64,000 bases of DNA from Spirochaetia bacterium (GCA_963675665.1 OY776510.1:1696001-1760000); one strand, 5' to 3'; shown: positions 17,056 to 40,763, counted from the stretch's first letter. Translations and numbers: made by a program. Notes: generated by a model not told the origin, from the letters alone.

Positions 17056-17581
17056 CAAAGATAATGTCAGGATTTATGCTGTGTACGTCGTCAAATAATT
17101 CATACCAATCATATCAATTTTTTCAGCTATAGATTTTGCATCATTGAGAATTATGGGTGACGAGATAGTTGGACCTTTCAATTAAATAAAGAGTATCAAG
17201 TGAAGGATTTCAAAAACTGGGTATTTTTGGAAGAATTCTTTAACCGCTTTCCCGATGTGGATTGAAGTAAAACTGAAAAAAGTACAGTGTGTATTATGGA
17301 ATATACGAGAAATTGCTAAAGAGAATTAAAACTATCATAATATTAGTAGATAAGAAAGAAATTATGTTATTATTTCTATGTAAGGCAGAGTTACGGAAGT
17401 TATAATTATCCTTATTTAGTTTTTCTTTAGACTATTGAGATATTGTATTCACAAAAGCATATAAAATCAATACAAATCAAATTTTTTAGTTAAAAATTGC
17501 TTGACATAATGGAATGTGTGTATTTAGATTGTATTAATATAAATAATACTTAACAGGTATGGAATGTGTTGGGAGATTAAT

Positions 17582-19018
17582 GTGAGTAGTGTATTTTTAT
17601 CTATTGATTCAGGCACCAGTTCAATCAGAGTTTCCTTTTTCAGTGAAGAAATAGTTTTAATTGCATCTGAGTCTATCGAAAGATCTGTAAATAGAAAATT
17701 TTCAGCAGAACAAGAATGGGATTATACGAGGAAGTTGATAAGAAGGATTATAGAAAAGAATCCCGGCTATAAGATTAAGGCAATAGCTGTCTCTCAGTTC
17801 TTGTCGTGGGTAATGATTGATAAAGATGGTAACCCTTTATCAGATGTAATTATGTATACAGATCAGAATTTAAAAGAATACACAGAATATTTGTCAAAGA
17901 ATCCACTATTAGACTTTTATAAAAAGACTGGAAGAGATATATCTGCCGATATGCCTATATTTGAGTTGATAAGGATTAAAAATGAAAATAGGAGAATGTA
18001 TGATAAAATTTATAAAATGATTCCTGTTAAAGATTACATAAATTTTAAATTAACAGGAGAAATTTTTTCAGATTATACTTTTTCCTGTTATGGATCGGTT
18101 TTTAATATAATAACAAAGGATTATGATGATGAAATCCTGTTATCATTTAATATTGAAAAAGATAAATTCCCCGAATTAAGAAAGTGCAACAGTATTATAG
18201 GAATGGTAAATGGTAAAGTCGCAAGCGATATTGGCCTTGCTGAAGAAATACCGGTTGCAGCAGGTGGGCCTGACGGGAGCATCGGAATAATCGGAATCGG
18301 TAATACAAAAAAAACAAGTGCCGTAAGCATTATGGGCACAACAGATGTATTTTTTGCAAATAGTGATAGCTGTTTAATAAAAAAAATAGGAAAGGAACTT
18401 GTAAAGAATATTCACCCTCTTGAAGATAATTATCTTTTAGGTGGTCCTATGGGGTTTTCTGGAGGTACTATTAATTGGTTAATTAAATTTCTTAACGGCC
18501 AGTATTCTTTAGAAAATTTAAATGAAATAGCTGAGGATATTCCACTAGGTTCTGGAGGAGTAATGTTTATTCCAGGATTGACTGGTGAGAGGGCACCATT
18601 TTGGAATCCAAAAATTAAAGGAAGTATTATAGGGTTGCAGCCTTATCATAATGCCGGTCATATGTTTAGAGCTATTCTTGAAGCTAATTCGTTTACTACA
18701 TTAAAAATAATCGAAATAATTAGATGTCAGGGAGCAGATGTTAATAATATAATTACAGGTGGTGGTGGGAGCAGGAGCAATTTGTGGATGCAGATAAAAG
18801 CAGATATTACAGGAATTCCTGTTATGGTTTCGTCAGAAAAAGAGACCACTTCTAAAGGAAATGCTATTATAGCGAGTTTAGCTGTAAATAATAGATCAGT
18901 TATTCCGGAACCACAAATTCGACATGTTTTTTATCCGGATAAGGAAGTTCATGAAAAGTATCATGAGTCTTATAATTTATATTTGAAATTTATTAAATTA
19001 ATTAATGAAATTTATTGA
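17582..19018 (+). CDS. FGGY family carbohydrate kinase (xylulokinase-like)
   Basis: 'SIDSGTSSIR', 'AGGPDG', 'SIMGTT', 'GERAPFWNP', 'GGGSRSNLWMQIKADITG'. Confidence 0.9.
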   Translation: MSSVFLSIDSGTSSIRVSFFSEEIVLIASESIERSVNRKFSAEQEWDYTRKLIRRIIEKNPGYKIKAIAVSQFLSWVMIDKDGNPLSDVIMYTDQNLKEYTEYLSKNPLLDFYKKTGRDISADMPIFELIRIKNENRRMYDKIYKMIPVKDYINFKLTGEIFSDYTFSCYGSVFNIITKDYDDEILLSFNIEKDKFPELRKCNSIIGMVNGKVASDIGLAEEIPVAAGGPDGSIGIIGIGNTKKTSAVSIMGTTDVFFANSDSCLIKKIGKELVKNIHPLEDNYLLGGPMGFSGGTINWLIKFLNGQYSLENLNEIAEDIPLGSGGVMFIPGLTGERAPFWNPKIKGSIIGLQPYHNAGHMFRAILEANSFTTLKIIEIIRCQGADVNNIITGGGGSRSNLWMQIKADITGIPVMVSSEKETTSKGNAIIASLAVNNRSVIPEPQIRHVFYPDKEVHEKYHESYNLYLKFIKLINEIY

Positions 19019-19064: not shown

Positions 19065-19799
19065 TTGGTAGATAGAAAGAGAACAAATACAAATCCATTA
19101 TATCATACTATAAAGGAAGATATAAAAAAGCAGATTCATGAAGAGATTTATAGGCCTGGAGATTTCATCTCTACCGAAGGAGAACTTTGCCGACAATATG
19201 ATGTAAGTAGAGTTACTGTGAGACGTGCTATTGAAGAACTTATAGACGAAGGTGTATTGAATCGGGAATCTGGAAAAACGGCACACGTAGCAGAGAAATC
19301 TATTCCTAGAAGCTTGAATCAACTTGGTGGATTGCATGAAGAATTATCACGAGATGGTATCAAATGTTCATCGTTTATTCTAAATTCTGAAAAGATAAGG
19401 GCAGATTCAATTATGGCTGATAATCTAAAAATAAACGAAGGAGATTGTTTGCATCGGGTAGAACGTCTAAGATATGCTAATGGAACTCCTCTCTCTTATC
19501 AGATCTTATATTTAGTCGATAAATCCTGTCCAGATCTTGACGTTCAGAAATTAGCTACAAAATCTTTATTTGAGACATTGGAAAAAGAGTATAATCTTAA
19601 AATTGAATATGCGACACAGACTATCTCTGCTGCATTAGCAACTTATAAGCAAGCTGCTCTTCTAGAGCTTCCTGAACGAACATGTATGCTTTGCATAAAA
19701 CGTATTACATATCTAAAAGATGGAAATGCGATTGAATATTCTGAAAGTTTTTATGTAGCAAGTAAATATAATTTATCAATGACTTTGCAGCGGAATTAG
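19065..19799 (+). CDS. GntR family regulator (HutC/UTRA type)
   Basis: 'PLYHTIKEDI', 'TEGELCRQYDVSRVTVRRA', C-terminal UTRA-like 'ERLRYANGTP'. Confidence 0.9.
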   Translation: MVDRKRTNTNPLYHTIKEDIKKQIHEEIYRPGDFISTEGELCRQYDVSRVTVRRAIEELIDEGVLNRESGKTAHVAEKSIPRSLNQLGGLHEELSRDGIKCSSFILNSEKIRADSIMADNLKINEGDCLHRVERLRYANGTPLSYQILYLVDKSCPDLDVQKLATKSLFETLEKEYNLKIEYATQTISAALATYKQAALLELPERTCMLCIKRITYLKDGNAIEYSESFYVASKYNLSMTLQRN

Positions 19800-19852
19800 C
19801 AATACATGTAGCCATAATTATAACAATTACAATACAAATGTAATAAAAAGAG

Positions 19853-19900: not shown

Positions 19901-19911
19901 AGGGTATAATA

Positions 19912-21570
19912 ATGAGTGAACAGTATAAAGGGGGACAGTTAGTAGTTAAAGTCCTCGAAGAAAATAAAACAAAAGTAGTATTCGGTATTCCCGGAGGACA
20001 AACTTTAAGTGTAACGGATGCGATATATGATACAGATATCAGGTTTATAAATACACGACATGAAAATGGTTCAGCCTGTGCGGCAGATGGTTGGGGGCGC
20101 CTGACTGGAGAACCCGGAATATGCCTGGCAACAACCGGATGCGGAGCATCAAACCTGATAACCGGTTTAGGCGGAGCATACAGGGATTCTAGTCCGGTAA
20201 TTGCGTTGGTATTTCAAAATAAACTACCTGACGCAGGAAAAGGTGATGCGCAGGAGAGTAATCATGAAGCTTTATTCTCAAGTATATGTAAGCAGTACAT
20301 CCCGGTAAGATCTGCCGGCAGTGTGGTATGGGCAATGCGTGAAGCCTACAGGGTTGCAAAAACCGGCAGGCCCGGACCCGTTGTCGTTGATTTGTATAGA
20401 GATGTTGTTGAAGATCAGACAGCAGGATACGAGTATGTGGACCCAAAAAGTTACTGTATACAAAGCAGGGTTAAGCCAGATGACGAAGAAGTAAAATCAG
20501 CAGTTAAAGCAATAAAAGACAGTAGCAAAATCTGTGTTTGGTGCGGTAATGGCGTTAAACTTTCAGATGCATCGGAAGAAGTAATGAAACTGTCTAAAAT
20601 AACCAATGCGCCGGTAGTTACAACCTATAACGGGATTGCATGCATCCCCGGAGAATTTGAAAATCTGATAGGTCCGAGGAGCCGGCATGGTAGTGTCGTC
20701 ACCAAGGCCGCAATAGAGGATGCAGATTGTATAGTATTGGTAGGCTCGACACTGACGGCGATAAGCACAAACCGTTGGAGTATAAAAGCTAAGAATATAA
20801 TCCAGATAGATATAATCCCTGAGAACATAGGCAGACATTATCCTGTATCGGTAGGTGTGGTCGGAGATGCGAAGAAAGCATTAACCGCGATAACTGACGG
20901 TTTGGTAAGTGCCGGATTCATTGGTGAAGAAGCTTTCCTTCAGGAACTGAAAAGTAAAAAGTCAGAATGGGAAAAGAAAACAGTATCCGGGGCGATAGCG
21001 GATAAGACAGCGGAGCCGGTGGCGCCGATAGCTTTTGCGAAAGAATTTGAGAAGGTACTATCTGAGAACAGTGTTTTAGCGGTAGACGCGGGAAATCCCG
21101 GGGCATGGACGCATATAATAAAATTTCCGAAAGGAACTTCCTATATGAAGCCGGTAAATTTTGGGAACATGGGTTTTGCTCTTCCGGCTGCCTTGGGGGC
21201 AAAGGCTGCTGCACCGGAAAAAGAAGTAATAGCGTTGTTGGGTGACGGGTCGCTTGGAATGACTCTGACGGAACTGGAAACAGTGGCCCGGGAGAAACTA
21301 AATATCATAATACTTGTATTGAATGATGATGCGTATGGAAATATCAGGCAGGAAGAGCTTTTTAAGACCGGAAAGGAACGGTACATAGGAGTTGATTTCA
21401 CTCGGGTTGATTATGTGGATGTAGCAAAGGCGCTTGGATGTGATGGAGCTGTAGTACGAAAAGCAAGCGACTTATCTTCCGCATTTGCGCAAGCCCGTGC
21501 GTCGGAGAAGCCCTTTATGATTGAAGTAAAGTTCGATGGTAGCTATACTATTTGGCCTGAAGCTTTCTAG
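19912..21570 (+). CDS. ThDP-dependent enzyme, acetolactate synthase large subunit-like
   Basis: 'VFGIPGG', 'TRHE', 'GRPGPVVVD', ThDP motif 'GDGSLGM...LNDDAYG'. Confidence 0.85.
   Translation: MSEQYKGGQLVVKVLEENKTKVVFGIPGGQTLSVTDAIYDTDIRFINTRHENGSACAADGWGRLTGEPGICLATTGCGASNLITGLGGAYRDSSPVIALVFQNKLPDAGKGDAQESNHEALFSSICKQYIPVRSAGSVVWAMREAYRVAKTGRPGPVVVDLYRDVVEDQTAGYEYVDPKSYCIQSRVKPDDEEVKSAVKAIKDSSKICVWCGNGVKLSDASEEVMKLSKITNAPVVTTYNGIACIPGEFENLIGPRSRHGSVVTKAAIEDADCIVLVGSTLTAISTNRWSIKAKNIIQIDIIPENIGRHYPVSVGVVGDAKKALTAITDGLVSAGFIGEEAFLQELKSKKSEWEKKTVSGAIADKTAEPVAPIAFAKEFEKVLSENSVLAVDAGNPGAWTHIIKFPKGTSYMKPVNFGNMGFALPAALGAKAAAPEKEVIALLGDGSLGMTLTELETVAREKLNIIILVLNDDAYGNIRQEELFKTGKERYIGVDFTRVDYVDVAKALGCDGAVVRKASDLSSAFAQARASEKPFMIEVKFDGSYTIWPEAF
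19913..21439 (+). repeat. 1527-bp near-perfect direct duplication, copy 1
   Basis: matches 31037-32563 (offset 11124); only one substitution seen (G20230 vs A31354). Confidence 0.95.
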
Positions 21571-21748
21571 AGAAGAGTGTTTTGAAAGAACAAAATAGAA
21601 GAATAAAACTTGTAATCACATATGATGCTATCAGAACTATGGTGATGGTTAAGTGCTCTGCTAATATGTGGTTCCCTGAAATGAAGTGGCTTGATGCAAA
21701 ACTTATATTACAGTCGGCAATACTATAAAAAAATATTGGAGGATTTTT

Positions 21749-22654
21749 TTGGAAAGGAAATCAAAACAGACTACAGTTGAGGAAGCTGTTTCAATAATTG
21801 AGTCTGGTTCAAAATTGGCAATTGGCGGATCTCTTATACGTAAAGCTCCTATGGCACTTGTAAGAGAAGTTGTTAAACAAAAAAAACGAGATTTAACTTT
21901 GTATAGTTGGTCGGCTGGGATGGACTTTGATCTATTAATTGGTGCAGGTTGTGTAAAGGAAGCTTGGTCTTCATACTGCGGCTTGTTTCAATTCGGTATG
22001 GCTATGAATTTCCGGCGCGAAGTTGAGAGCGAGAAGGTGCGGTTTGTTGATCTGAGCGAAACATGCGCTAAAGATAAATTCAGGGCTGCCGCGTTTGGTA
22101 ACACATACTGTATTTCAAAAGTCCCGTTACATACAAGCCTTATGGAAAATGAAGAATTTCAGAATATTGTAACTTGTCCATTCACCGGCGAAGAATACGT
22201 AGCGATGGAAGCATACCATCCTGACGTAGCCATTCTGCATGCCCATAGAGCGGATAAATACGGAAATGTTCAACTTGACCCGATACGGATGATGGATAAT
22301 GAATGTGATATTATGATAGCAAAATCTGCGAAAAAGGTGATTGTTTCTGTTGAAGAAATAGTGGATGAGTCAATAATAATAGAGAATCCTACATGGACCG
22401 TACTTCCCAAGTTTTTTGTTGATCATGTAGTAGAGATACCTTTTGGTGCACATCCGAATTCATGCGATACATTATATGATTTTGATATGGAACACGGAAG
22501 ACTTTATCGTGATTACAGTGTTTCTGTAGATCAATTCCAAAAATATTTAGAGGAATATATTTTTTCATGTCTTAATCATTCTGATTATATAGAGAAATGC
22601 GGCGGTATAGATTCTTTTAGAAAATTGAGTAGATCAACGGTGGAGGATAATTGA
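21749..22654 (+). CDS. family I CoA-transferase-fold subunit A (GctA/CatI-like)
   Basis: 'LAIGG...PMALVREV', 'DLLIGAG', 'CPFTGE', 'PDVAILHAHRADKYGN', 'PFGAHP'. Confidence 0.85.
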   Translation: MERKSKQTTVEEAVSIIESGSKLAIGGSLIRKAPMALVREVVKQKKRDLTLYSWSAGMDFDLLIGAGCVKEAWSSYCGLFQFGMAMNFRREVESEKVRFVDLSETCAKDKFRAAAFGNTYCISKVPLHTSLMENEEFQNIVTCPFTGEEYVAMEAYHPDVAILHAHRADKYGNVQLDPIRMMDNECDIMIAKSAKKVIVSVEEIVDESIIIENPTWTVLPKFFVDHVVEIPFGAHPNSCDTLYDFDMEHGRLYRDYSVSVDQFQKYLEEYIFSCLNHSDYIEKCGGIDSFRKLSRSTVEDN

Positions 22655-23475
22655 TGGAGAGAGAATATACTTTAGCGGAGCTTTTGGCTGTGGAGGCCTC
22701 CAGATATGTTCAGGATGATGAGATGAATTTCGTTGGGATCGGAACAGGAGGAGAAGCTTGGGTTAGAGCTGTAGGTATGCCGACGGTTGGAGTATGCCTT
22801 GCTCAGCATAAACATGCACCGAATGCTACATTCATGATTGGCCCCGTATTGGATCCTCTTTTAGACGATATATACGTCCCTGATTCTAATTGGGAATATG
22901 ATTTAATTCATTGGCCTTGTAGAAGCCAGATACCTCTCGAAGATGCGTTGGGTATTTTCAGGCTTGGGAAAATTGGTTTGGCGTTCGCGTCAGCTGCTCA
23001 GGTAGATAAATTTGGGAATCTGAATATTGCTCGTATCGGAAGTAAAGAGAATATGAAAGTCAGATTGCCGGGATGTTTGGCTCAGACTGATCACGGAGCT
23101 TATGCTAAAAGAATTTGTGTCACAGTTAGGCACAATAAAAGAACACTAGTTGAGCACGTTGATTTCATTTCATGCGCAGGAAATGAAAATAGAAAAGGTT
23201 TGCCTGGAGGTGGTCCTGCTCTAGTGTTTACAGACAAGGCTATCATGGATTTTTCACCTGAAAATGGAAGAATGAGGTTAAAAAGTATTCATCCCGGAAT
23301 TGAAATAGAAGATGTGATTGAGAATACAGGTTTTGATTTAATTGTTCCGGAGAAGGTTGAAGAAACTCTGGCTCCCACAAAAGAAGATCTTGACCTAATC
23401 AGAAATGTTATTGATCCGAAGAAAAAGTTCTTGGAAGCACGTATAACACATGAAGCAGCAACACTTAATTGGTAG
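22651..23475 (+). CDS. family I CoA-transferase-fold subunit B (GctB-like; catalytic Glu not evident)
   Basis: 'AQVDKFGNLN', 'VRLPG', 'VDFIS', 'GGGP', 'LKSIHPG', 'NTGFDL'. Confidence 0.85.
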   Translation: MMEREYTLAELLAVEASRYVQDDEMNFVGIGTGGEAWVRAVGMPTVGVCLAQHKHAPNATFMIGPVLDPLLDDIYVPDSNWEYDLIHWPCRSQIPLEDALGIFRLGKIGLAFASAAQVDKFGNLNIARIGSKENMKVRLPGCLAQTDHGAYAKRICVTVRHNKRTLVEHVDFISCAGNENRKGLPGGGPALVFTDKAIMDFSPENGRMRLKSIHPGIEIEDVIENTGFDLIVPEKVEETLAPTKEDLDLIRNVIDPKKKFLEARITHEAATLNW

Positions 23476-23485
23476 GGGGGAAAAA

Positions 23486-24688
23486 ATGGGGGGAGCACTT
23501 TCCGGGATTAGAGTGTTAGATATTTCTAGATACATAGCTGGGCCATACTGCAGTATGCTGTTAGGCGATATGGGTGCTGATGTGATCAAAGTGGAAAAGA
23601 AGGGCTGTGGTGAGGATTCCAGGAGCATGATTCCATTTGCTGGAAAAGAAGGTGAAGAAAAGGTTAGTTTATACTTTACTCAATACAATAAAAATAAGAG
23701 AAGTGTAACATTAGATTTTAGAAATCCAGAAGGCATTGAATTACTTAAGGAAATGATTTCCAAAAGTGATGTTTTAGTTGAAAATTTTCGTCCAGGAACG
23801 TTAGGTAAAATGGGGCTGACAAAAGAAGTTCTTGAAAAAATCAATCCAAGTCTAATTACCGTATCTATTTCAGGATTCGGACAAGATGGTCCATATCGTG
23901 ATCGTGCTGCTTTTGACTGCATTGGACAGGTAATGGGCGGACTGATGAGTGTTACCGGCGAGCAAGACGGTGAGCCGTTATTAGTCGGCAGTTGGATAGC
24001 TGATTTTGCGACTGGTATTTATGCCGCCTTGGGTGCAGTTTCAGCGCTTTATAAAAGAAAAGAAACAGGTATAGGACAACAGATTGATGTATCGTTGCTC
24101 GAAAGTGTTATTTCTTTACTGGCAACGGCAATTCCTAATTATGTTGAAACAGGATTAAAACAGGAGCGTAGAGGGAACAGGGACAATGTTACCGGTCCGG
24201 CGAATCTATTTAAAACCAAGGACAGTATGATATATATGCATGCCGGCACAGATCCTCTATTTACGAAATTAGCCGAGTTAATGGGAAGAAAAGAATTAAA
24301 TGTTGATCCGAAATTCCACACTGCAAACGACAGGATGAATAATATAGAAGAAATTGAGGAAATTGTTCAAGACTGGATGTCAAAATATTCCACTGATGAA
24401 TTGGAAAGGATGCTTGTAGGTGTTGGGATTCCATGTTCTCCGATGGCTGATGTCGAATCTGTTATCAATAATCCACAGGTTAAACATAGAAAAGCTGTTC
24501 TATATAAAGAATATCCGGGGGTAGGAAAAATATCTCTGCCTGGATCTGTAATTAAAATGTCAAAAAATGAAAATGAAGAAATAAAATTACCGCCAAAATT
24601 AGGGCAGCATAATTTTGAAGTTTACGAAGAAGTTCTGGGGCTTTCAAATCAGGAAGTTAATAAATTAAAAGAGCAAGGAATAATATAG
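23486..24688 (+). CDS. CaiB/BaiF (family III) CoA-transferase
   Basis: 'ALSGIRVLDIS..IAGPY', 'NKNKRSVTLD', 'ENFRPG', 'SISGFGQDGPY', catalytic Asp in 'WIADFATG'. Confidence 0.9.
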   Translation: MGGALSGIRVLDISRYIAGPYCSMLLGDMGADVIKVEKKGCGEDSRSMIPFAGKEGEEKVSLYFTQYNKNKRSVTLDFRNPEGIELLKEMISKSDVLVENFRPGTLGKMGLTKEVLEKINPSLITVSISGFGQDGPYRDRAAFDCIGQVMGGLMSVTGEQDGEPLLVGSWIADFATGIYAALGAVSALYKRKETGIGQQIDVSLLESVISLLATAIPNYVETGLKQERRGNRDNVTGPANLFKTKDSMIYMHAGTDPLFTKLAELMGRKELNVDPKFHTANDRMNNIEEIEEIVQDWMSKYSTDELERMLVGVGIPCSPMADVESVINNPQVKHRKAVLYKEYPGVGKISLPGSVIKMSKNENEEIKLPPKLGQHNFEVYEEVLGLSNQEVNKLKEQGII

Positions 24689-24704
24689 TTTTAAGGAGAA
24701 ATTT

Positions 24705-25190
24705 ATGCTCGTTAAAGTAAGACAAGTAATAGATCGAATAATTGGAGCAATATCCGGAATATTATTTATAATTGCTGTCTGTGCCACACTAATTGGCATA
24801 TTAGACAGAACTTTCGGTCTGAATTTGAAAACCGTCTGGGCGGAAGAAGTTACAAGATATTCAATTATTTGGGCTATGTTTTTAATAGTAGGTATTTGTC
24901 TTAGAAGAGGATATCAAACTGCATTTACATTATTTCTTGATAAAATGAATGTTAAATTAAGGGCTTTATTTCAAATAATAATATATATACTTATTACTTT
25001 ATTTTGTCTGCTTTTATTCTATTATGGTATCAAATCCTCGTTTCAAAATATAAATCAACATTCGCCTGTTTTGCAAATCAGTATGACTTATCCATTCTTA
25101 TCAATTCCTGTTGGTGCGGCTTTATGCTTGTTTGAAACGGTATCGGGTATTTATGTAACAATTAGCGGACAACTAAGAGAAGGAATATAG
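24705..25190 (+). CDS. dctQ: TRAP transporter small permease
   Basis: 161 aa, 4 TM, 'WAEEVTRY'. Confidence 0.85.
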   Translation: MLVKVRQVIDRIIGAISGILFIIAVCATLIGILDRTFGLNLKTVWAEEVTRYSIIWAMFLIVGICLRRGYQTAFTLFLDKMNVKLRALFQIIIYILITLFCLLLFYYGIKSSFQNINQHSPVLQISMTYPFLSIPVGAALCLFETVSGIYVTISGQLREGI

Positions 25191-25192
25191 AG

Positions 25193-26485: not shown

Positions 26486-26511
26486 GATAAATATTATTTA
26501 TGGAGGATTTT

Positions 26512-30293: not shown

Positions 30294-31043
30294 ATGAAAA
30301 AGAGAATTATTGTATTGGGAGTGTTATTAACATGGTTGTTTATTTCACTGGGAGTATGTTTTTCAAACGGTGAACAGGAAGTATTAAAAGAGGCTCCTCA
30401 GACAATTGAACCTGAGTATGATCTATCTTCAGTACCGGTTCAGAAACATGATCCAAAATTTCCTAACGGGGCAGTACTATACTCTGACCTGAAGAATGTT
30501 ATAGGTGATATTAAGATCCAGAACAGAGAGTTGAAAATAGGTTTTATAATGAAATCTCTTGAAAATGAATACTGGTCAATCATGGCAGAAGGTGTAGAAG
30601 AAGAAATTGAAAGAATGAAAAGTTCCGGGGTAAATAATGTTGAAGTCACAATTAGATCAGCACAAGACGACTGTGATCAGGAAGGGCAATTAACTATTAT
30701 CAGAGATATGATAAACAAGAAATATGACTGTATCGTAGCTTTTCCGATATCAGATGCTAATTTGGTTCCCGGATTAGAAGATGCAATGGATGTAGGGATT
30801 CCTATTGTTACAGGATCAGTTGCTTATGATTCAGATCCGCATATTCCTTACTATATCGGATTAAGTTCATACGAGTCCGGCCGGCTGGTTGCCGAAGCCT
30901 TTTCAAAGAGACTAGGAAAAGAAGGTGGAGAAGTATCAATTATAATGGGAATACCTAATAATCCATCAGCAAGAGATCGGACTGCAGGATTTAACGATTG
31001 GGTGAAAGAACATCCTGAGAGTAATCTGGAAGTAGTTGAGTGA
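30294..31043 (+). pseudogene. sugar ABC (RbsB-like) substrate-binding protein, 3'-truncated
   Basis: 'IGFIMKSLENEYW', 'ARDRTAGF' then ends abruptly at 'LEVVE*' exactly where the duplicated ThDP sequence begins; C-terminal part missing. Confidence 0.75.
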
Positions 31044-33465
31044 ACAGTATAAAGGGGGACAGTTAGTAGTTAAAGTCCTCGAAGAAAATAAAACAAAAGT
31101 AGTATTCGGTATTCCCGGAGGACAAACTTTAAGTGTAACGGATGCGATATATGATACAGATATCAGGTTTATAAATACACGACATGAAAATGGTTCAGCC
31201 TGTGCGGCAGATGGTTGGGGGCGCCTGACTGGAGAACCCGGAATATGCCTGGCAACAACCGGATGCGGAGCATCAAACCTGATAACCGGTTTAGGCGGAG
31301 CATACAGGGATTCTAGTCCGGTAATTGCGTTGGTATTTCAAAATAAACTACCTAACGCAGGAAAAGGTGATGCGCAGGAGAGTAATCATGAAGCTTTATT
31401 CTCAAGTATATGTAAGCAGTACATCCCGGTAAGATCTGCCGGCAGTGTGGTATGGGCAATGCGTGAAGCCTACAGGGTTGCAAAAACCGGCAGGCCCGGA
31501 CCCGTTGTCGTTGATTTGTATAGAGATGTTGTTGAAGATCAGACAGCAGGATACGAGTATGTGGACCCAAAAAGTTACTGTATACAAAGCAGGGTTAAGC
31601 CAGATGACGAAGAAGTAAAATCAGCAGTTAAAGCAATAAAAGACAGTAGCAAAATCTGTGTTTGGTGCGGTAATGGCGTTAAACTTTCAGATGCATCGGA
31701 AGAAGTAATGAAACTGTCTAAAATAACCAATGCGCCGGTAGTTACAACCTATAACGGGATTGCATGCATCCCCGGAGAATTTGAAAATCTGATAGGTCCG
31801 AGGAGCCGGCATGGTAGTGTCGTCACCAAGGCCGCAATAGAGGATGCAGATTGTATAGTATTGGTAGGCTCGACACTGACGGCGATAAGCACAAACCGTT
31901 GGAGTATAAAAGCTAAGAATATAATCCAGATAGATATAATCCCTGAGAACATAGGCAGACATTATCCTGTATCGGTAGGTGTGGTCGGAGATGCGAAGAA
32001 AGCATTAACCGCGATAACTGACGGTTTGGTAAGTGCCGGATTCATTGGTGAAGAAGCTTTCCTTCAGGAACTGAAAAGTAAAAAGTCAGAATGGGAAAAG
32101 AAAACAGTATCCGGGGCGATAGCGGATAAGACAGCGGAGCCGGTGGCGCCGATAGCTTTTGCGAAAGAATTTGAGAAGGTACTATCTGAGAACAGTGTTT
32201 TAGCGGTAGACGCGGGAAATCCCGGGGCATGGACGCATATAATAAAATTTCCGAAAGGAACTTCCTATATGAAGCCGGTAAATTTTGGGAACATGGGTTT
32301 TGCTCTTCCGGCTGCCTTGGGGGCAAAGGCTGCTGCACCGGAAAAAGAAGTAATAGCGTTGTTGGGTGACGGGTCGCTTGGAATGACTCTGACGGAACTG
32401 GAAACAGTGGCCCGGGAGAAACTAAATATCATAATACTTGTATTGAATGATGATGCGTATGGAAATATCAGGCAGGAAGAGCTTTTTAAGACCGGAAAGG
32501 AACGGTACATAGGAGTTGATTTCACTCGGGTTGATTATGTGGATGTAGCAAAGGCGCTTGGATTGTGCAGTTATGAAGAAATAAAGAAGGTAAACCCTAA
32601 AATAATTATGGCAAGCATATCAGGTTTTGGTCAGACGGGTCCCTATGCAGAACGTCCCGGATATGATGCGGTGGCGCAGGCGATGAGCGGGCTAATGTCG
32701 TTAACCGGGCAGTCCGATGGCCCACCGACCTTAGGCGGAACTTTCTATATTGACTTTATTACTGCAATGTATTCGACGATTGGAATATTGTCTGCGTTGA
32801 AAGAAAGAGATGTTACAGGCAAAGGCCAGCATATAGATTTAACCCTTCTTGATAGCGCTGTTTCTGTATTGTTAACAGCTATTCCGGCTAAGGTATTATG
32901 TAATGAAACGATGGGGAGAGTAGGAAATAGAGATAGATATTCTGCTCCTGCTAATGCTTTTAAAACAAAAGACGGGGATTGGGTTATATTAATTGCGGGT
33001 ACTGATCAACATTTTAAACGTTTTGCTAAAATTGCAGAGCTTGAATATCTATTGGATGATATTAGGTTTTCTACCCATGATAGCAGACTGAAATATTCTG
33101 ATGAAATCGAAAGCATTGTAAGTGATTGGGTTTCAAAATTTACAACCGAGCAGATAATCGAAATGGCTTCTAAAGCTGAAATAACCTGTTCAAAAGTAGC
33201 TACGATAGATGATGTTATAAATAATCCTCAGCTAAAATATAGAAAAAAGATAATTAATATAGAGCATCAGAAAATGGGCACTGTTCCTATGGTGGAATTC
33301 CCAATTAATTTTTCAGATAATCCCTTTGTAGAAAAACGACCTGCTCCAATCCTCGGAGAACATAGTAAAGAGATTCTTCAGGAATTTCTGGGATTTGACT
33401 CTGCTAAAATTAGAGCACTGGAAGAATCCGGTATTATTCAAATTTCAGGAACGATTCATGAATAG
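31036..33465 (+). CDS. chimeric ORF: ThDP enzyme copy (aa 1-509) fused in frame to a CaiB/BaiF protein lacking its N terminus
   Basis: N part identical to 19912 protein except D107N; after 'VAKALG' it continues 'LCSYEEIKKVNPKIIMASISGFGQTGPY...PAPILGEH'. Confidence 0.8.
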   Translation: MSEQYKGGQLVVKVLEENKTKVVFGIPGGQTLSVTDAIYDTDIRFINTRHENGSACAADGWGRLTGEPGICLATTGCGASNLITGLGGAYRDSSPVIALVFQNKLPNAGKGDAQESNHEALFSSICKQYIPVRSAGSVVWAMREAYRVAKTGRPGPVVVDLYRDVVEDQTAGYEYVDPKSYCIQSRVKPDDEEVKSAVKAIKDSSKICVWCGNGVKLSDASEEVMKLSKITNAPVVTTYNGIACIPGEFENLIGPRSRHGSVVTKAAIEDADCIVLVGSTLTAISTNRWSIKAKNIIQIDIIPENIGRHYPVSVGVVGDAKKALTAITDGLVSAGFIGEEAFLQELKSKKSEWEKKTVSGAIADKTAEPVAPIAFAKEFEKVLSENSVLAVDAGNPGAWTHIIKFPKGTSYMKPVNFGNMGFALPAALGAKAAAPEKEVIALLGDGSLGMTLTELETVAREKLNIIILVLNDDAYGNIRQEELFKTGKERYIGVDFTRVDYVDVAKALGLCSYEEIKKVNPKIIMASISGFGQTGPYAERPGYDAVAQAMSGLMSLTGQSDGPPTLGGTFYIDFITAMYSTIGILSALKERDVTGKGQHIDLTLLDSAVSVLLTAIPAKVLCNETMGRVGNRDRYSAPANAFKTKDGDWVILIAGTDQHFKRFAKIAELEYLLDDIRFSTHDSRLKYSDEIESIVSDWVSKFTTEQIIEMASKAEITCSKVATIDDVINNPQLKYRKKIINIEHQKMGTVPMVEFPINFSDNPFVEKRPAPILGEHSKEILQEFLGFDSAKIRALEESGIIQISGTIHE
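31037..32563 (+). repeat. 1527-bp near-perfect direct duplication, copy 2
   Basis: matches 19913-21439. Confidence 0.95.
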
Positions 33466-34375
33466 TAATGGGATAACAAAAAGGAAAGATAAATGTCTCA
33501 GTATCAAAGATGCTGTGAAATATATAAAAAATGGAGACAGGATTGCTTTTGGAGGATTTGCTGTTTATCAACGACCAATGGCATTTGTTCATGAAATAAT
33601 CAGAGCAGAAATAAAAGATTTAAGAGTAGTAGGTGTTGTTAATGCAAATGAAGTCGATTTACTTGCCGGAGCAGGTTGTATATCAGAAATCGAAACATCA
33701 TATGTAGGTTTGGAAAAATTTGGGTTGGCAAGAAATTTTCGCAGGAAAGTTGAAGACAACAGTGTAAAAGTTTTTGAATATTCAGAACTTATGAGTTGGG
33801 ACAGATTCAGGGCTTCTCAGGAAGGGTTGCCGTATTGGCCGTCATATTATGTTGGAGGTTCTGATCTCTTAAAATATAATAAAGATATTAAACAATTTAC
33901 ATGTCCGATTACAGGCAAAAAAAGCTGGGCAATACCGGCAGCAGATCCGGATGTCGTTGTAATCCATGCGGCTGTAGGTGATAAATACGGGAATATACAA
34001 ATACCTCTTCGTCATATGCTGCCTCAGAGTTTAAATATTACATTATCACGTTCATGTTCAAAAGTTATAGTTACGTTAGAAAGAATTGTAGATACAGATG
34101 TGGTTAAAAGTAATCCGCATCTTACACTTATACCGGCATTTAAACCTCTTTGTGTGGTTGAAATCCCCTGGGGCGCTCATCCGACAGGGGTGTTGGGAGA
34201 ATATAATGTTGATGAAAATCATTTAACAGAATATGTAGAATCTTCTAAAACAGAGAGCGGATTTAAAAAGTATTTGGATAAGTATATTTACGGTTGTGAA
34301 GATTTTGATGGATATTTGAAAAAGATTGGGAAAGAGAACCTTAATAAAATAATTGATAGTGGAGACGTTTGTTAG
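33458..34375 (+). CDS. family I CoA-transferase-fold subunit A (second paralogue)
   Basis: 'IAFGGF..QRPMAFVHEI', 'SYVGLEKFGLA', 'CPITG', 'PWGAHP'. Confidence 0.85.
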   Translation: MNSNGITKRKDKCLSIKDAVKYIKNGDRIAFGGFAVYQRPMAFVHEIIRAEIKDLRVVGVVNANEVDLLAGAGCISEIETSYVGLEKFGLARNFRRKVEDNSVKVFEYSELMSWDRFRASQEGLPYWPSYYVGGSDLLKYNKDIKQFTCPITGKKSWAIPAADPDVVVIHAAVGDKYGNIQIPLRHMLPQSLNITLSRSCSKVIVTLERIVDTDVVKSNPHLTLIPAFKPLCVVEIPWGAHPTGVLGEYNVDENHLTEYVESSKTESGFKKYLDKYIYGCEDFDGYLKKIGKENLNKIIDSGDVC

Positions 34376-35196
34376 CTATGGAAAAATATTCTATTGAAGA
34401 ATTATTAACTGTAAATATTGCAAGAACTATTAAAGATGGAGAGATTGGTTTTACCGGTTTAGCTACAGGAAGTGCCGCTTCAATGTACATAACAGCAATA
34501 CCGTTAGCCGCTATGGTATTAGCGCAGAATATGCATGCTCCTAACCTGACAATTCTGCTGGCTGGTTGGATTCATAATCCGGATTTAAGTAAATTAACTT
34601 CTTTACCTGATTCAGAATTTGCTTCGGAGTTATTGAACCTGTCGTGTGAGGCCCAGATGATGGATTATCCGGGGCCATGGTCCCACCGAAGGGGAGATGT
34701 GAATTTCGGTTTTGGTTCAGGAGTGCAGGTGGACGTAGAAGGCAATATTAATAGTGCATGTATTGGAGGTTTTAATAAACCAAAATTATGGCTTGTCGGA
34801 TCAATTCTGTTACCAAAACATATGGCTCTTTTCGGCAGAGAATATATTATGATGCCGCACCATGATAAACGTAATTTTGTTGAAAAAGTAGATTATATTT
34901 CTGGTGTTGGTTATCCGGGTGGTCGAGATGGAAGAAAAGAGCTTGGGATGGAAACAGGCGGCCCCGAATATATTTATACTCCCAAATGCGTTTTTAGTTT
35001 TAAGAAAAAAACCGGATGAATTTATGTTAAATCAATACATAAAGGAATTACAAAAGAAGAGTTAAAGGATAACACAGGCTTTGAATTAGGAGATCTAAAC
35101 AATATTCCTGTAACCGATGAACCAACGGCAAAAGAATTGGAAATTATAAGGGAAGTTGTAGATCCCAGAGGAATATTATTTAAAAGAGAGATGTAA
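34369..35196 (+). pseudogene. CoA-transferase-fold subunit B with internal nonsense codon
   Basis: TGA at 35017-35019; the same frame continues 'IYVKSIHKGITKEELKDNTGFEL...EVVDPRG' to TAA 35194-35196, matching the C terminus of the 22651 paralogue. Confidence 0.85.
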
Positions 35197-35640: not shown

Positions 35641-35660
35641 ATATGAAGGAGGTGAATAGG

Positions 35661-37172
35661 ATGGACAATAAAGAAAAAATATTAGAGTTGATTAATATCA
35701 ATAAATATTTTCCTGGAGTTAGAGCTTTAGAAAATGTTTCATTAACTGTAAATAAAGGTGATGTCCATGGAATAATCGGTGAAAACGGAGCCGGGAAGTC
35801 AACTTTAATGAAAATACTTGCTGGAGCAATAAAAAAGGATTCAGGTGAAATAAAGATTGAAGGAGACTATAAAGAGTTTGAAAAACCAATTGATGCATTT
35901 GATTCAGGTGTTGGAATTATTTATCAGGAATTAGAATTAATTAGACAATTTACCGCTGTTGAGAATTTTTTTCTTGGACGATGGAAGAAAACAAAATTAG
36001 GATTAGTAGATTGGGCCGGGATGAGGAAAGAGGTAGAAGAGTTTTATAAAAAATGGGATATATCGATTAACTTAAATGTTCCGGTTAAAGAAATAAGTAT
36101 TGCTCAATGCCAATTAATAGAAATAACCAAAGCAGTTTTTAATAAATCAAAAATAGTTATTATGGATGAACCTACAAGTTCACTTACCGACAAAGAGGTA
36201 GGTGTATTATTTGAGCTCATTAGAAATCTGAAAAAGAATGGTATAACGGTTTTATATATATCACATAAGTTAGAAGAAATTTTTGAAATTTGTGACAAAG
36301 TCTCAATATTTAAAGATGGTAAGAATGTTGCTGATTATGATATCGGTTCGGTTACAAAAGATCTGCTTGTCAAAGGTATGGTCGGACGCGAATTAAAAAA
36401 CTATTACCCGGAACGTGAAGGAAAAATTAGTAATGTGGTTTTAGAAGTTAAAAATTTGTCCAGTCAACAGGGAGTTAAGAATGTAAGTTTCAAAGTCAGG
36501 AAAGGCGAAATTCTAGGTTTCGCCGGTTTAGTCGGGGCTGGTAGAACAGAAACGATGAAGGCTTTGTTTTGTGCGGATAGACCAACAGATGGCGAAATTT
36601 TTATTGATGGTAAGAAAGTGAAAATAGGGAAACCAAAAGATGCAATAAACAATGGAATGGCATTCGCTACAGAGGATAGACGATATGAAGGATTAGTTTT
36701 ATGTCGAAGTTGTTCAGAGAATATTACTTTAGCCAATTTTCAGAGCATATCAAATTTATTCGGAATAATTGATTTAAAGAAGGAGGATGAAATAGCAAAA
36801 AAATATAAAAAGTCTTTGTCAATTAAAATGTCTTCTACAAATGTGAGAGCAGAGAATTTAAGCGGTGGTAATCAGCAAAAGCTTGTAATAGCCAAATGGT
36901 TAAATACGAATGTAAAGATTTTTATATTTGATGAACCGACTAGAGGGATTGATGTCGGTGCAAAATCTGAAATTTATAAAATCATGCGAGCGCTTGCCAG
37001 AAACGGAGCAGCAGTAATTATGGTTTCATCTGAATTGCCTGAAATACTTGGCGTAAGTGACAGGATCATAGTTATGAGCAACGGAGAGATTGTAGGTGAT
37101 TTGGATGCAATGAAAGCAACTGAGGAGAGTATTATGTCCTACGCTATAGGAGGGGGTGAAAATGAAGATTAA
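35661..37172 (+). CDS. sugar ABC transporter ATP-binding protein (RbsA/MglA-like)
   Basis: 'GENGAGKSTL', 'MDEPT', 'LSGGNQQK', 'DEPTRGIDVGAK'. Confidence 0.95.
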   Translation: MDNKEKILELININKYFPGVRALENVSLTVNKGDVHGIIGENGAGKSTLMKILAGAIKKDSGEIKIEGDYKEFEKPIDAFDSGVGIIYQELELIRQFTAVENFFLGRWKKTKLGLVDWAGMRKEVEEFYKKWDISINLNVPVKEISIAQCQLIEITKAVFNKSKIVIMDEPTSSLTDKEVGVLFELIRNLKKNGITVLYISHKLEEIFEICDKVSIFKDGKNVADYDIGSVTKDLLVKGMVGRELKNYYPEREGKISNVVLEVKNLSSQQGVKNVSFKVRKGEILGFAGLVGAGRTETMKALFCADRPTDGEIFIDGKKVKIGKPKDAINNGMAFATEDRRYEGLVLCRSCSENITLANFQSISNLFGIIDLKKEDEIAKKYKKSLSIKMSSTNVRAENLSGGNQQKLVIAKWLNTNVKIFIFDEPTRGIDVGAKSEIYKIMRALARNGAAVIMVSSELPEILGVSDRIIVMSNGEIVGDLDAMKATEESIMSYAIGGGENED

Positions 37173-38130
37173 GGAATATGCAGTATCTATTGAAAATAAA
37201 AAATTTAATACCAAAGATTTTTATAAAAAATATGGAATTTTAATTGTACTTGTAATGTTGATTATTATAGCCGGTATTATCGAACCCATATTTCTAAGTT
37301 CAAAGAATGTACTTAATGTATTGAGACAAGCATCTATAAATGGAATTTTAGCAATAGGAATGACATATGTAATTCTTAGTGGCGGAATAGATCTTAGTCA
37401 GGGCTCCATTGTTGGGCTTTGTGGAATGATTGTAGTTATGCTAATGCCGGAAATCGGAATGATTCCTGCTATAATAATAGCATTAATTTGTGGTTCACTG
37501 ATTGGTGTTTTAAATGGATTTTGTATTCATAATAATGTTCCAGCATTCATTATGACTTTAGCAGGATTAACTTCTATTAGAGGGGTTGCATATTATATTT
37601 CAAATGGACAGCCTTATTCAGCAACAAATGAAGCGTATACTTTAATAGGTCAGAGTTCATTACTACATATACCTATGCCTGTTATTATTTTTATAATAGT
37701 AGTTATTTTAGGCTATTTTATAGCTAATAGAACCACTTTCGGGAGATCGGTATATGCTATAGGGGGCAGTGAAGAAGCTTCACGACTTTCCGGAATAAAT
37801 TTACTTAAAACAAGGATAATTGTATATACGATCTCAGGATTTTTATCAGCATTAGCTGCGATTGTTTTAACTTCAAGATTATATTCATGTGATCCAACTA
37901 TTGGTGAAGGTTATGAGCTTGATGCAATTACAGCTGCTGTAATTGGCGGGACAAGTATGTCGGGAGGCGAAGGTAGTGTTCTAAAGACTGTAATAGGAGT
38001 TCTCATTCTTGGGATTCTTTCTAATATTTTAAATTTATTAGGTATAAGTCCATATATTCAGGAAATTGTAAAAGGTTTAATTATTTTCATTGCTGTAGCA
38101 GCGGATACCTGGAAAAAGGAAAAAATATAA
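37162..38130 (+). CDS. sugar ABC transporter permease (RbsC-like)
   Basis: 'GGIDLS', 'YAIGGSEEASRLSG', 'YELDAITAAVIGGTS'. Confidence 0.95.
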   Translation: MKIKEYAVSIENKKFNTKDFYKKYGILIVLVMLIIIAGIIEPIFLSSKNVLNVLRQASINGILAIGMTYVILSGGIDLSQGSIVGLCGMIVVMLMPEIGMIPAIIIALICGSLIGVLNGFCIHNNVPAFIMTLAGLTSIRGVAYYISNGQPYSATNEAYTLIGQSSLLHIPMPVIIFIIVVILGYFIANRTTFGRSVYAIGGSEEASRLSGINLLKTRIIVYTISGFLSALAAIVLTSRLYSCDPTIGEGYELDAITAAVIGGTSMSGGEGSVLKTVIGVLILGILSNILNLLGISPYIQEIVKGLIIFIAVAADTWKKEKI

Positions 38131-38197
38131 TTATCAATAGTTTGTTTATAATTTTTCAATGAAATTGAAAAATATTATTCATCAAGGAGGATAAAAG

Positions 38198-39196
38198 ATG
38201 AATTATTTAAGCATTAAGAAAATTAAGAGAAGGAGGATGACAATGCAGAGGCCGCTTAAAAGAATCTTGATTTTAGCCGCTCTATTTACTGTTGTTATCT
38301 ATAGTGGTTTTTGTGCAGGCACACAAGAAAGCAATTCTGAAGATAAAGTTGTTATTGGATTTGCTCAATCTCGTCTGAATCACCCTTATCGAGTTGCTGG
38401 TGTAGAACAGTTCAAAGAAGCAGTAACCTCTAACGGGTTTGATTGGGAAGTTATTGTTAGTGACGGACAAAATGATACTGCAAAACAAACAGCAGATGTT
38501 GAGGATATGATAGTACGAGATGTAGATGTTATAGTATTAAGTCCTATTTCAGCAGAAGCTCTTACACCAGTCGCAAAAAAAGTAATGGAAGCTGGTATTC
38601 CGCTCATACTCCTGGATCGTACTATATCGACAGATGATTATACGGTATTCATTGGCGGTGATAATAGAATGATTGGAGAAATAACAGCTGAAGAAATAGC
38701 TAAAAAAGCAAACGGGAAAGAAGTTAAAATTGTTCAATTACAGGGAACGCTTGGGGCATCTGCTACAGTTGATAGGGATGCTGGATTCAAAGATACGATA
38801 AAGAAATATCCGAATTTGGATTTAGTATATGATTTTTCAGCAAAATATGATCGTGCAACTGCTTTAGATGTAATGGAAGATGTTTTACAGAAAGAACAAG
38901 ATATTTTTGCAGTATATTGCCATAATGATTCAATGGCAATGGGCGCGATGACAGCCATTACTGCAGATGAAATAGACGATGTTCTTATTTATGGTGCAGA
39001 TGGGACAAAAGAGATTTTTAATGAAATTAAGAAAGGTACTGTAGCAGGAACCTGTGTTTATCCTACAGGGGCAAAAGAGGCTGTAGATATTATAGCAGAA
39101 ATTTTGCAGGGAAATGAAGTAAATAAGAAATACAGCGTAGATGTACCATATGTAAATATAGATAATGTTGACGCATTATTTGATCTCGGAATATAA
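38198..39196 (+). CDS. sugar ABC transporter substrate-binding protein (RbsB-like)
   Basis: 'IGFAQ', 'DGQND.AKQ', 'IPLILLDR', 'HNDSMAMGA'; alternative start at 38243. Confidence 0.9.
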   Translation: MNYLSIKKIKRRRMTMQRPLKRILILAALFTVVIYSGFCAGTQESNSEDKVVIGFAQSRLNHPYRVAGVEQFKEAVTSNGFDWEVIVSDGQNDTAKQTADVEDMIVRDVDVIVLSPISAEALTPVAKKVMEAGIPLILLDRTISTDDYTVFIGGDNRMIGEITAEEIAKKANGKEVKIVQLQGTLGASATVDRDAGFKDTIKKYPNLDLVYDFSAKYDRATALDVMEDVLQKEQDIFAVYCHNDSMAMGAMTAITADEIDDVLIYGADGTKEIFNEIKKGTVAGTCVYPTGAKEAVDIIAEILQGNEVNKKYSVDVPYVNIDNVDALFDLGI

Positions 39197-39250: not shown

Positions 39251-39569
39251 ATTGTGTCATAGAATATGTGTTTCTTTCTGTATGGACTATCGCTGCTGGT
39301 CGGTTAAAATAAAAAATTGCTATTAATTACTTGAAATTATAAGTAACCTTTTTTTATGGAAGTCTTTAAGAAGAAAGGAATTATATGTATGGAGAAGTAT
39401 AACACTTTCATGAATTTTTTAAGTAGTCATATTTCACGATGTATTTTGGAATCCGAGCATTTCCAAATGAAAAATCTATTCAAGTTAATGCTTTATTCTT
39501 GTTTTAAATTGTATAAAAAAGCGATATGAATTCAGGTACAAAAAGAATACATCAATGGGAGGTTATTAT

Positions 39570-40763
39570 ATGAGCAAAAAGGCTCTAGAGGGGATTAAAG
39601 TAATCGATCTTTCGCGGGTCATTGCCGGTCCTAACTGCACTATGATTCTTGGAGACCTAGGGGCCGAAATCATCAAGATTGAGAAAAAGGGAGAAGGAGA
39701 TATTAGTCGGGGTTATGAACCATTTTATAAAGGGGAGTCTACATATTTCATGACCTACAATCGTAATAAAAAGAGTGTTACTCTAGATTTCAGGCATGAG
39801 AAGGCGGTTGAGGTGCTTGAAAAGCTAATAGTAAATGCTGATGTCTTAGTAGAGAACTTCAAAGCAGGTACTCTTGAAAAGATGGGCCTTTCTCCGGAAA
39901 GACTGCTAGAACTGAATCCCCGTATTGTCATCACAAGGATATCAGGTTTCGGGCAGACTGGTCCGTATATGAATAGAGCATGTTTTGACGCGGTAGCACA
40001 GTCGTTGAGCGGTCTTATGGATATCACCGGAGAGCCAAAAGGAAATCCAGTCATGGTGGGGACTTATGTCTGTGACCTGATGGCCGGTGTATATGCCGCA
40101 GTCGGGACGCTTGCCGCGCTCAATTCGCGAAATAGTACCTGTAAAGGTCAAGTTGTAGATGTCGCTCTGCTTGATGCGGCGAGTGCGATGACACATTCGG
40201 CAATACTTAACTATTTCATGCTGGGATTAGTTATGGAGAGAAATGGCAACCAGGATAGGGCGGCGTGGCCTGCTAATTTTTACACCACTCGTGATGGCCG
40301 TATGGTGTTTATTCACGCTGGTCAAGACCCCGCATTTGCAAATCTTTGTAAAATACTAGGACGTGAGGATCTTTTAGAAAACGATGAATACAAATTTCTT
40401 TCAAACCGTAAGAAACATATAGATGAATGCGATACACTGGTACGTTCTTGGACGATGCAGAACGATCTGGAATTTATATTGGAAACATGCGAGAAAAGTG
40501 GACTACCGTGTGCGCCGGTAAATTCTATAGAGGAAATGATACATAACGAACAACTGATTTCAAGGCAGATGATTCGCGATGTTGAAGATGATAAATTCGG
40601 TACTATCAAGGCTAGTGGCCCGGTAATAAAAATGTCTGATACCAACCCCGATGTATATCGGCACGCTCCGCGTCTTGGCGAGGATAACCTTGAAGTTTAT
40701 ATGAAGGAGCTATGTATCACACGCGTGGAGTATGAGGAGCTTGTAAGCAGCGGCGCAATCTGA
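39570..40763 (+). CDS. CaiB/BaiF (family III) CoA-transferase
   Basis: 'ALEGIKVIDLSRVIAGP', 'NRNKKSVTLD', 'ISGFGQTGPY', catalytic Asp in 'YVCDLMAG'. Confidence 0.9.
   Translation: MSKKALEGIKVIDLSRVIAGPNCTMILGDLGAEIIKIEKKGEGDISRGYEPFYKGESTYFMTYNRNKKSVTLDFRHEKAVEVLEKLIVNADVLVENFKAGTLEKMGLSPERLLELNPRIVITRISGFGQTGPYMNRACFDAVAQSLSGLMDITGEPKGNPVMVGTYVCDLMAGVYAAVGTLAALNSRNSTCKGQVVDVALLDAASAMTHSAILNYFMLGLVMERNGNQDRAAWPANFYTTRDGRMVFIHAGQDPAFANLCKILGREDLLENDEYKFLSNRKKHIDECDTLVRSWTMQNDLEFILETCEKSGLPCAPVNSIEEMIHNEQLISRQMIRDVEDDKFGTIKASGPVIKMSDTNPDVYRHAPRLGEDNLEVYMKELCITRVEYEELVSSGAI

Follow-up and report, generated by a model that had tools for sequence, protein, structure and literature searches.

Evidence for a distinct subfamily of class I CoA-transferase-fold heterodimers without the catalytic glutamate, from a Spirochaetia genome and related loci

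A 64,000-nt stretch of the genome of a Spirochaetia bacterium (GCA_963675665.1 OY776510.1:1696001-1760000), referred to here as the window and numbered from its first letter, encodes two heterodimers that resemble glutaconate CoA-transferase (GctAB), a class I coenzyme A (CoA) transferase, and that carry no nucleophilic glutamate in the beta subunit. The alpha subunit of the first pair (alpha-1, GctA-like, 301 aa) is encoded at 21749..22654 on the plus strand and matches the CoA_trans family PF01144 (2.4e-25). The gene for its GctB-like partner (beta-1, PF01144 4.2e-11) follows on the same strand as an open reading frame (ORF) of 274 aa at 22651..23475. The start of beta-1 is probably the ATG at 22654, since the identical database protein has 273 aa. 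The second pair, alpha-2 and beta-2, lies further along in the window.

Sequence comparisons support well the view that both pairs belong to a distinct subfamily, because its members share an insert in beta, the loss of the beta Glu, an invariant Glu in alpha and further signature residues, and because a tree with the Glu-less sequences as one clade is not rejected. The fold has so far been found repurposed in two enzymes, the hydrolase IpdAB and the decarboxylase AibAB. The present pair would be a third and far more widespread lineage, with a signature that is sharp and testable: the Glu of beta has been lost and one in alpha gained. On balance we think it probable, if far from certain, that the pair is a GctAB-fold heterodimer that no longer acts as a transferase and uses alpha-Glu104 as general base on an acyl-CoA, with carbon-carbon cleavage of the IpdAB kind as the likeliest reaction, in the catabolic pathway outlined below.

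The missing nucleophile and the subfamily signature

An HMMER alignment of beta-1 with GctB (1poi_B, E 1.5e-25) places 'HAPNATFMIGPV' under the GctB sequence 'YAPDCHIIVESG', so that Gly64 stands where GctB has its catalytic Glu. In a profile alignment, the GctB Glu and Cys56 of AibB come out as extra residues, and the column that holds them is absent from the subfamily. The Glu is thus missing from beta-1 in the pairwise and in the profile alignment alike, replaced by Gly64 in the one and by no residue in the other. At the same place beta-2 reads 'HAPNLTILLAGWI', with Ala as the corresponding residue. A search for a nucleophile of the GctB Glu54 type ('E[SAG]G' after the HAP motif) found 'FMIGPV' in beta-1 and 'LLAGWI' in beta-2. 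No other conserved Glu was found in beta: neither residue 35, which lies in the insert, nor residue 82 in the loop after it is constant. Without this Glu in beta-1, the pair lacks the defining feature of a working class I transferase.

The original prediction, made from the DNA sequence alone, had described an insertion of approximately 10 residues common to both betas. We found it at about residues 31-42 of beta-1, with a length of 11 residues when measured against GctB and of 9 against AibB; as for IpdB, its N-terminal 28-33 residues are unaligned in the profile alignment. The insert does not occur in classical homologues, including the classical GctAB of the same genome. This third homologue ('ILFEAGG' in beta, no insert, Asn in alpha) serves as an internal control.

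In an AlphaFold2 model of beta-1 (mean predicted local distance difference test score, pLDDT, 82), the insert follows strand 25-28 and makes the first helix longer at its beginning, and Gly64 lies at the end of the next strand, 60-63. The insert should therefore border the former active site in this model, because both loops would share one sheet edge in the beta-alpha-beta unit, as judged from the topology. Foldseek comparison of the model, a check that the prediction itself had proposed, returned GctB (query TM-score, TMq, 0.70), IpdB (0.68-0.69) and AibB (0.64-0.67) as the three top matches. Both subunits have the CoA_trans fold (PF01144). Beta-2 gives no Pfam match, yet it is 33% identical to beta-1.

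A Glu in both alpha subunits had likewise been predicted, and it is present in 'VDLSE' of alpha-1 (Glu104) and in 'FEYSE' of alpha-2. It is kept in all 83 alphas that are partners of Glu-less betas. At this place the 28 alphas of classical, Glu-bearing betas carry either His (23) or Asn (5), without exception. In the solved relatives the aligned residue is Gln in GctA and Gly in AibA; in IpdA it is E in 6co6_A and A in 6coj_A. We take the residue changed in 6coj to be Glu105, the catalytic base of IpdA, an assumption backed by the E/A difference between these two chains.

A word-based protein search returned 402 relatives, 33 of which were aligned: 19 combine the insert with the loss of Glu, 9 are insert-free with 'E[AGSF]G', and 5 have neither. 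For a broader view we scanned genomes and collected 77 related loci; the counts given here take these together with the window. Not one of the 89 insert-bearing betas has the Glu; a further 28 betas are classical. According to the record titles, the Glu-less group spans at least nine phyla, including Bacillota, Planctomycetota, Acidobacteriota, Chloroflexota, Actinomycetota, Methylomirabilota and Pseudomonadota. Its group-specific residues are T32, S114, Q117, Q145, H148 and D171 in beta and Y76, G78, A85, R89 and D187 in alpha. We defined the subfamily by the beta insert with Thr32, the absence of Glu, S114, Q117, H148 and D171 in beta, together with Y76, R89 and E104 in alpha. Alpha-1/beta-1 carry this full set, and so do alpha-2/beta-2, which deviate only at two further signature positions (beta Q145 to Leu and alpha D187 to Asn). 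The claim that the arrangement exists in both paralogues has to be qualified: paralogue 2 is interrupted in this genome, although intact orthologues exist elsewhere, as in L005 and L014.

When the insert and Glu columns are left out, the Glu-less label needs two changes on the resulting tree, and an approximately unbiased (AU) test does not reject the Glu-less sequences as one clade (p-AU 0.24). The subfamily is thus probably monophyletic. The Glu-less arrangement goes back to one old switch and has been preserved in every case at 35-45% identity, and this conservation is evidence of selection on the new arrangement rather than of repeated co-evolution. It also bears on the idea that the proteins are catalytically dead, structural or regulatory remnants of a CoA-transferase. 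The loss of the nucleophile and the decay of paralogue 2 in this genome would fit such an idea, but many positions, new polar ones included, are invariant in both subunits across many phyla at this level of identity, and the placement in operons among enzymes is conserved as well. We consider a dead remnant very improbable.

Besides the subfamily, the five aligned betas without Glu and without the long insert (P0076, P0078, P0094, P0100 and P0104) deserve mention, as do similar sequences at loci L071 and L072. These additional betas show motifs such as 'FINTADTIDP', 'YINVSDSIDP' and 'FWGGLLAG'. The nucleophile has apparently been lost in more than one lineage of the fold.

Relatives of known function and the proposed chemistry

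GctAB of Acidaminococcus fermentans (PDB 1poi) is the top match in sequence and structure for both subunits, with the same alpha-beta gene order and the same Pfam family. Against the PDB, alpha-1 matches GctA at 8.6e-34, AibA at 3.7e-27 and IpdA at 4.5e-20; a profile search with beta gave 4.2e-50 for GctB, 1.5e-30 for IpdB and 1.4e-17 for AibB. GctAB differs in the very features that define the subfamily, as GctB has the nucleophilic Glu ('IIVESG') and no insert, and GctA has Gln in place of alpha-1 Glu104.

IpdAB, the hydrolase that cleaves the ring of COCHEA-CoA in steroid catabolism (PDB 6co6, 6co9, 6coj and 6con), has the same fold (TMq as above) and shares with the window pair the combination of a Gly at the place of Glu54 in beta and a Glu at the aligned position of alpha. 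In IpdB the Gly is residue 57, at the position of Glu54 in glutaconate CoA-transferase (available text of PMC5380842). By analogy, we suggest that alpha-1 and beta-1 form a heterodimer with the class I fold of GctAB in which the beta nucleophile is gone, an 11-residue insert in the loop between strand beta1 and helix alphaA lies beside the site, and an invariant Glu has been gained in alpha. CoA transfer would most likely be lost; an acyl-CoA would still be bound, and alpha-Glu104 would act as general base. The likeliest type of reaction would be a carbon-carbon cleavage of the IpdAB kind, that is a retro-Claisen or retro-aldol reaction.

It is possible that the protein is still a CoA-transferase whose nucleophile has moved from beta to alpha-Glu104, with the acyl-anhydride and CoA-thioester intermediates formed from the other side of the cleft. 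In its favour, the fold is conserved along with the parts that bind CoA, the closest relative of known structure, GctAB, is a true transferase, and an invariant carboxylate is kept in the heterodimer. IpdAB argues against this, since it has the same beta-Gly/alpha-Glu arrangement and, as far as the available text of PMC5380842 goes, CoA transfer between short acyl chains was not seen. The gene neighbourhoods speak against it as well. Among the 67 loci with a Glu-less beta (the basis of all neighbour counts here), a family III CoA-transferase of the CaiB type lies nearby at 39, and at 22 there is a classical class I pair that bears the Glu; as 50 of the loci thus already encode a bona fide CoA-transferase of either kind, a further one would be redundant. 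The remaining 17 loci have no visible transferase, a figure that favours the moved nucleophile and weighs against our own reading, although many of these loci are short contigs. Taken together, we think a relocated transferase nucleophile unlikely.

AibAB, the 3-methylglutaconyl-CoA decarboxylase of Myxococcus xanthus (PDB 5mzw and others), offers another model. It is a Glu-less member of the same fold (PMC7756340, in the part available), AibB is a strong structural match (TMq 0.65), and after the HAP motif its 'VGSLDP' resembles 'IGPVLDP' of beta-1. The pair might then decarboxylate a glutaconyl-type or beta-carboxy acyl-CoA. However, Cys56 takes the place of the Glu in AibB, which is short of 9 residues of the insert, AibA has Gly at the position of alpha-104, and AibB gives the weakest sequence match among the three relatives. 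Beta-1 shows Gly or no residue instead of Cys, and alpha-1 has Glu instead of a non-acidic residue. The context of kinase, sugar transporter and thiamine diphosphate (ThDP)-dependent enzyme does not suggest a dicarboxylate either. A decarboxylase of this kind seems to us highly unlikely.

Several points weigh against IpdAB-like chemistry without transfer, the reading that we prefer. First, the pair is nearer to the true transferase GctAB than to IpdAB (8.6e-34 versus 4.5e-20 for alpha, 4e-50 versus 1.5e-30 for beta), so IpdAB is not the nearest characterised relative for either subunit. IpdAB shares none of the signature residues except the Glu of alpha and the Gly of beta. The placement of alpha-Glu104 in the active-site cleft follows from alignment and is to be taken as a prediction, and the role of the ThDP enzyme lacks an explanation. 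The covariation between the subunits amounts to essentially one evolutionary switch, that is to conservation and not to repeated co-evolution. The 89 Glu-less and 28 classical betas stem from a scan whose peptide pattern held Ser114 and Gln117, both signature residues, so that the Glu-less group is enriched and its size relative to the classical one does not reflect how often each occurs in nature. In a Dehalococcoidia and Syntrophales group, the genes around the pair are unrelated to those of the other loci. Finally, activity data for any member of the subfamily were not found in the literature searched.

The distinct subfamily of the original prediction holds up, and the non-transferase chemistry that came with it is suggested by the alignment of Glu104 with the IpdA residue, the Gly of IpdB and the transferase beside the pair in 50 of the 67 loci. 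In the databases, members are named 'glutaconate CoA-transferase subunit' or 'CoA-transferase', and the ESM Atlas clusters carry the generic 'CoA-transferase' alone. These transferase names are probably a wrong functional call.

Gene neighbourhoods and the proposed pathway

The steroid-ring catabolic context of IpdAB includes EchA20, IpdC, FadA6 and KstR2 (Table 1 of PMC5380842, from the available text). The window, in contrast, has a GntR regulator, a ThDP enzyme, a family III CoA-transferase, a tripartite ATP-independent periplasmic (TRAP) transporter and an FGGY kinase, and no steroid (KstR2) regulon. Across the related loci a ThDP enzyme is a neighbour in 36, an FGGY or Dak1/Dak2 kinase in 23, a ribose-type ATP-binding cassette (ABC) transporter in 21 and a TRAP transporter in 11. 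The smallest clusters (L011-L013 and L016) contain a classical transferase, a ThDP enzyme and the Glu-less pair, followed by an FGGY kinase in L012, L013 and L016. The minimal clusters from Bryobacterales show the order classical pair, ThDP enzyme, Glu-less pair, with the FGGY kinase in L012 and L013 and a lactate-permease gene in L012. Azospirillum clusters end with genes for DhaK and DhaL. Accessory genes vary and encode a putative cyclase, Zn and Fe alcohol dehydrogenases, an enolase-superfamily protein, a shikimate-dehydrogenase-like protein and a faintly MaoC-like protein.

The signature, its conservation and the synteny are observed directly; from them we infer every catalytic step and the substrate class of the following scheme. 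A hydroxy or sugar acid would be imported (by the TRAP transporter here, by a ribose-type ABC transporter or a lactate permease elsewhere) and thioesterified by the neighbouring family III CoA-transferase. That an adjacent CaiB/BaiF enzyme supplies the CoA ester, as originally predicted, agrees with the synteny, given a CaiB-type gene at 39 of the 67 loci. The resulting thioester would be transformed by the alpha/beta enzyme, and the ThDP enzyme together with an FGGY or dihydroxyacetone-type kinase would convert the non-CoA fragment to a phosphorylated ketose or triose. Apionate, hamamelonate, quinate, AI-2 and isosaccharinate were considered as possible substrates. Deoxyribonate catabolism is a precedent for the breakdown of sugar acids via CoA esters by other enzymes (Price et al., PMC6365646, in the part available); nothing pertinent was found in PMC9007349. 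With its CoA-transferase, ThDP enzyme, Glu-less pair, kinase and transporter, the conserved module suggests a catabolic pathway for which we found no described counterpart, and it offers a defined set of four or five proteins for reconstitution. Neither the subfamily nor a pathway with this gene set was found in the literature searched, in which subscription journals were thinly covered, so that their absence is not proven.

A bolder version of this scheme, which we put forward tentatively and consider doubtful as a whole, would make the pair the founder of a new enzyme family and of an undescribed, multi-phylum, CoA-dependent catabolic route. The substrate acid would be thioesterified and then cleaved via alpha-Glu104, with beta-His148, beta-Asp171 and alpha-Asp187 possibly forming a new polar or metal site, and the fragments would be turned into a ketose or triose by the ThDP enzyme and then fed into central metabolism by the FGGY or DhaKL kinase. 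The core of this route seems to be redox-neutral, since the recurrent gene families that were mapped in L011-L013 and L016, the minimal clusters, do not include a redox enzyme.

The neighbourhoods also bear on the question of whether any carbon-carbon bond is broken by the pair. As an acyl-CoA isomerase, epimerase or (de)hydratase, it would use alpha-Glu104 to shift protons at C2/C3 of a hydroxyacyl-CoA. One invariant general base suffices for this, and the ThDP enzyme could then be the enzyme that cleaves the carbon-carbon bond in the pathway. Two or more different Glu-less pairs occur at 20 of the 67 loci and could serve stereoisomers; in L005, L006 and L014, from other Bacillota, two such pairs lie within one operon. 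The family III CoA-transferase fold provides a parallel in alpha-methylacyl-CoA racemase. Yet we know of no member of the class I fold that performs isomerase, epimerase or (de)hydratase chemistry, and at some loci the module already contains a candidate hydratase in the faintly MaoC-like protein. Proton shuffling of this sort strikes us as improbable, and cleavage via alpha-Glu104 remains our preferred reading.

The classical GctAB-like pair of this genome, the internal control above, lies in a lysine-fermentation cluster (L078, G000:C1:117000-133000), along with genes for lysine 5,6-aminomutase subunits, a beta-keto acid cleavage enzyme, an AtoAD-like pair and a thiolase.

The two loci in the window

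At locus 1, all seven gene units from the kinase to the TRAP transporter (17564-27543) lie on the plus strand. The first (17564..19018) encodes an FGGY-family carbohydrate kinase (Pfam FGGY_N, FGGY_C) that is nearest to xylulokinase: its top PDB match is the xylulose kinase 2itm (E 1.4e-41), and it scores 252.8 bits with the NCBIfam model XylB, under the cutoff of 380. A GntR-family regulator with a UTRA effector domain (19065..19799, Pfam GntR and UTRA) follows and has homologues in 9 related loci. The next gene (19912..21570) encodes an acetolactate-synthase-like ThDP enzyme of 552 aa (Pfam TPP_enzyme_N, M and C) for which every NCBIfam match is under its cutoff. In the PDB, BbmA (8x3x) is its first match (4.6e-65), acetolactate synthases come next, and 2-hydroxyacyl-CoA lyase and oxalyl-CoA decarboxylase (HACL/OXC) are weaker at about 1e-42. 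We also considered the enzyme as a 2-hydroxyacyl-CoA lyase, which would make the module an aldonic-acid alpha-oxidation that recycles formyl-CoA. This idea was dropped because of the weak HACL/OXC matches compared with those to BbmA and acetolactate synthases (1e-65 to 1e-57).

Downstream of the alpha-1 and beta-1 genes lies the family III (CaiB/Frc-type) CoA-transferase at 23450..24688 (PF02515 4.9e-120). The NCBIfam models for succinate-glutarate, formyl-CoA and mesaconate CoA-transferase match it with about 290 bits, all under cutoff. The TRAP transporter is encoded by three ORFs on the plus strand, DctQ (24705-25190), DctM (25193-26485) and DctP (26500-27543). The assignment is based on the homologous DctQ, DctM and DctP genes of L002, which match the Pfam families, and on the match of DctP to NCBIfam TRAP_S1. 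The DctP-type binding protein has PDB matches of about 1e-30 to binders of many ligands, among which no clue to the substrate was found. An IS66 transposase gene follows on the opposite strand.

Paralogue 2 lies in a rearranged region, with all of the following genes on the plus strand. A sugar-binding protein gene (30294..31043, Peripla_BP_4, profile positions 1-156 of 258) is truncated at its 3' end, cut at the start of a duplicated ThDP segment. The ORF at 31036..33465 is a chimera of 809 aa, an in-frame fusion of a copy of the ThDP enzyme (Pfam TPP domains) with the C-terminal part of a family III CoA-transferase that lacks the first 95 profile positions (CoA_transf_3 positions 96-366). 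The duplicate comprises 1527 nt (19913-21439 equals 31037-32563), takes in the ThDP gene from the second base of its start codon onwards and contains a single mismatch (31354 A versus G; Asn versus Asp106). In contigs from public sequencing runs, the repeat is assembled as a contig of its own, with about double the depth of its flanks (24.5 versus 13.2-13.9 and 47.9 versus 26.6-26.7), and both of its junctions were found.

The alpha-2 gene (33395..34375, PF01144 2.4e-18, with 'FEYSE') is followed by that of the interrupted beta-2 (34369..35196), which alignments to beta-1 and orthologues identify as Glu-less and insert-bearing. The beta-2 ORF ends at an in-frame TGA (35017-35019), and the homologous C-terminus continues in frame to about 35196. 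The TGA comes directly after a run of eight A and arose by a substitution, not a frameshift. The stretch is identical in contigs of runs from two samples, X1 and X2 from one and X4 from the other, and one of these samples may be the source of the assembly. P0082 is an intact beta-2 orthologue of 270 aa. Paralogue 2 is probably a pseudogene locus in this genome, because of the in-frame TGA in beta-2 and the chimeric ORF upstream of alpha-2.

Further downstream are a ribose-type sugar ABC transporter with ATPase, permease and binding protein (35643..39196, the binding protein at 38198-39196; Pfam ABC_tran, BPD_transp_2 and Peripla_BP_4) and a second, intact family III CoA-transferase (39555..40763, PF02515 7e-123). 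A protein of 345 aa (40844..41881) is conserved in the module, with 73% identity to L005:10622-11656 and 55% to L053:10133-11143. It has no Pfam match itself; its orthologues give weak MaoC matches. Two IS66-family transposases and a truncated Mutator-family transposase (27805-29358, 42174-42830 and 43686-45197) flank both loci, which agrees with the rearrangements seen there.

Elsewhere in the window, the minus strand at 6157-10467 encodes a second, divergent ThDP enzyme of 627 aa that is weakly IolD-like (133 bits, cutoff 715), next to an RpiB/LacAB-like isomerase and a split transketolase, with an IclR regulator on the opposite strand. This looks like another sugar pathway, to which we give no assignment. 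At 55871-57211 lies the gene for a 446-aa protein resembling 1-deoxy-D-xylulose 5-phosphate (DXP) reductoisomerase, whose N-terminal domain is matched in two profile stretches, and the gene for a small helix-turn-helix (HTH) protein adjoins it.

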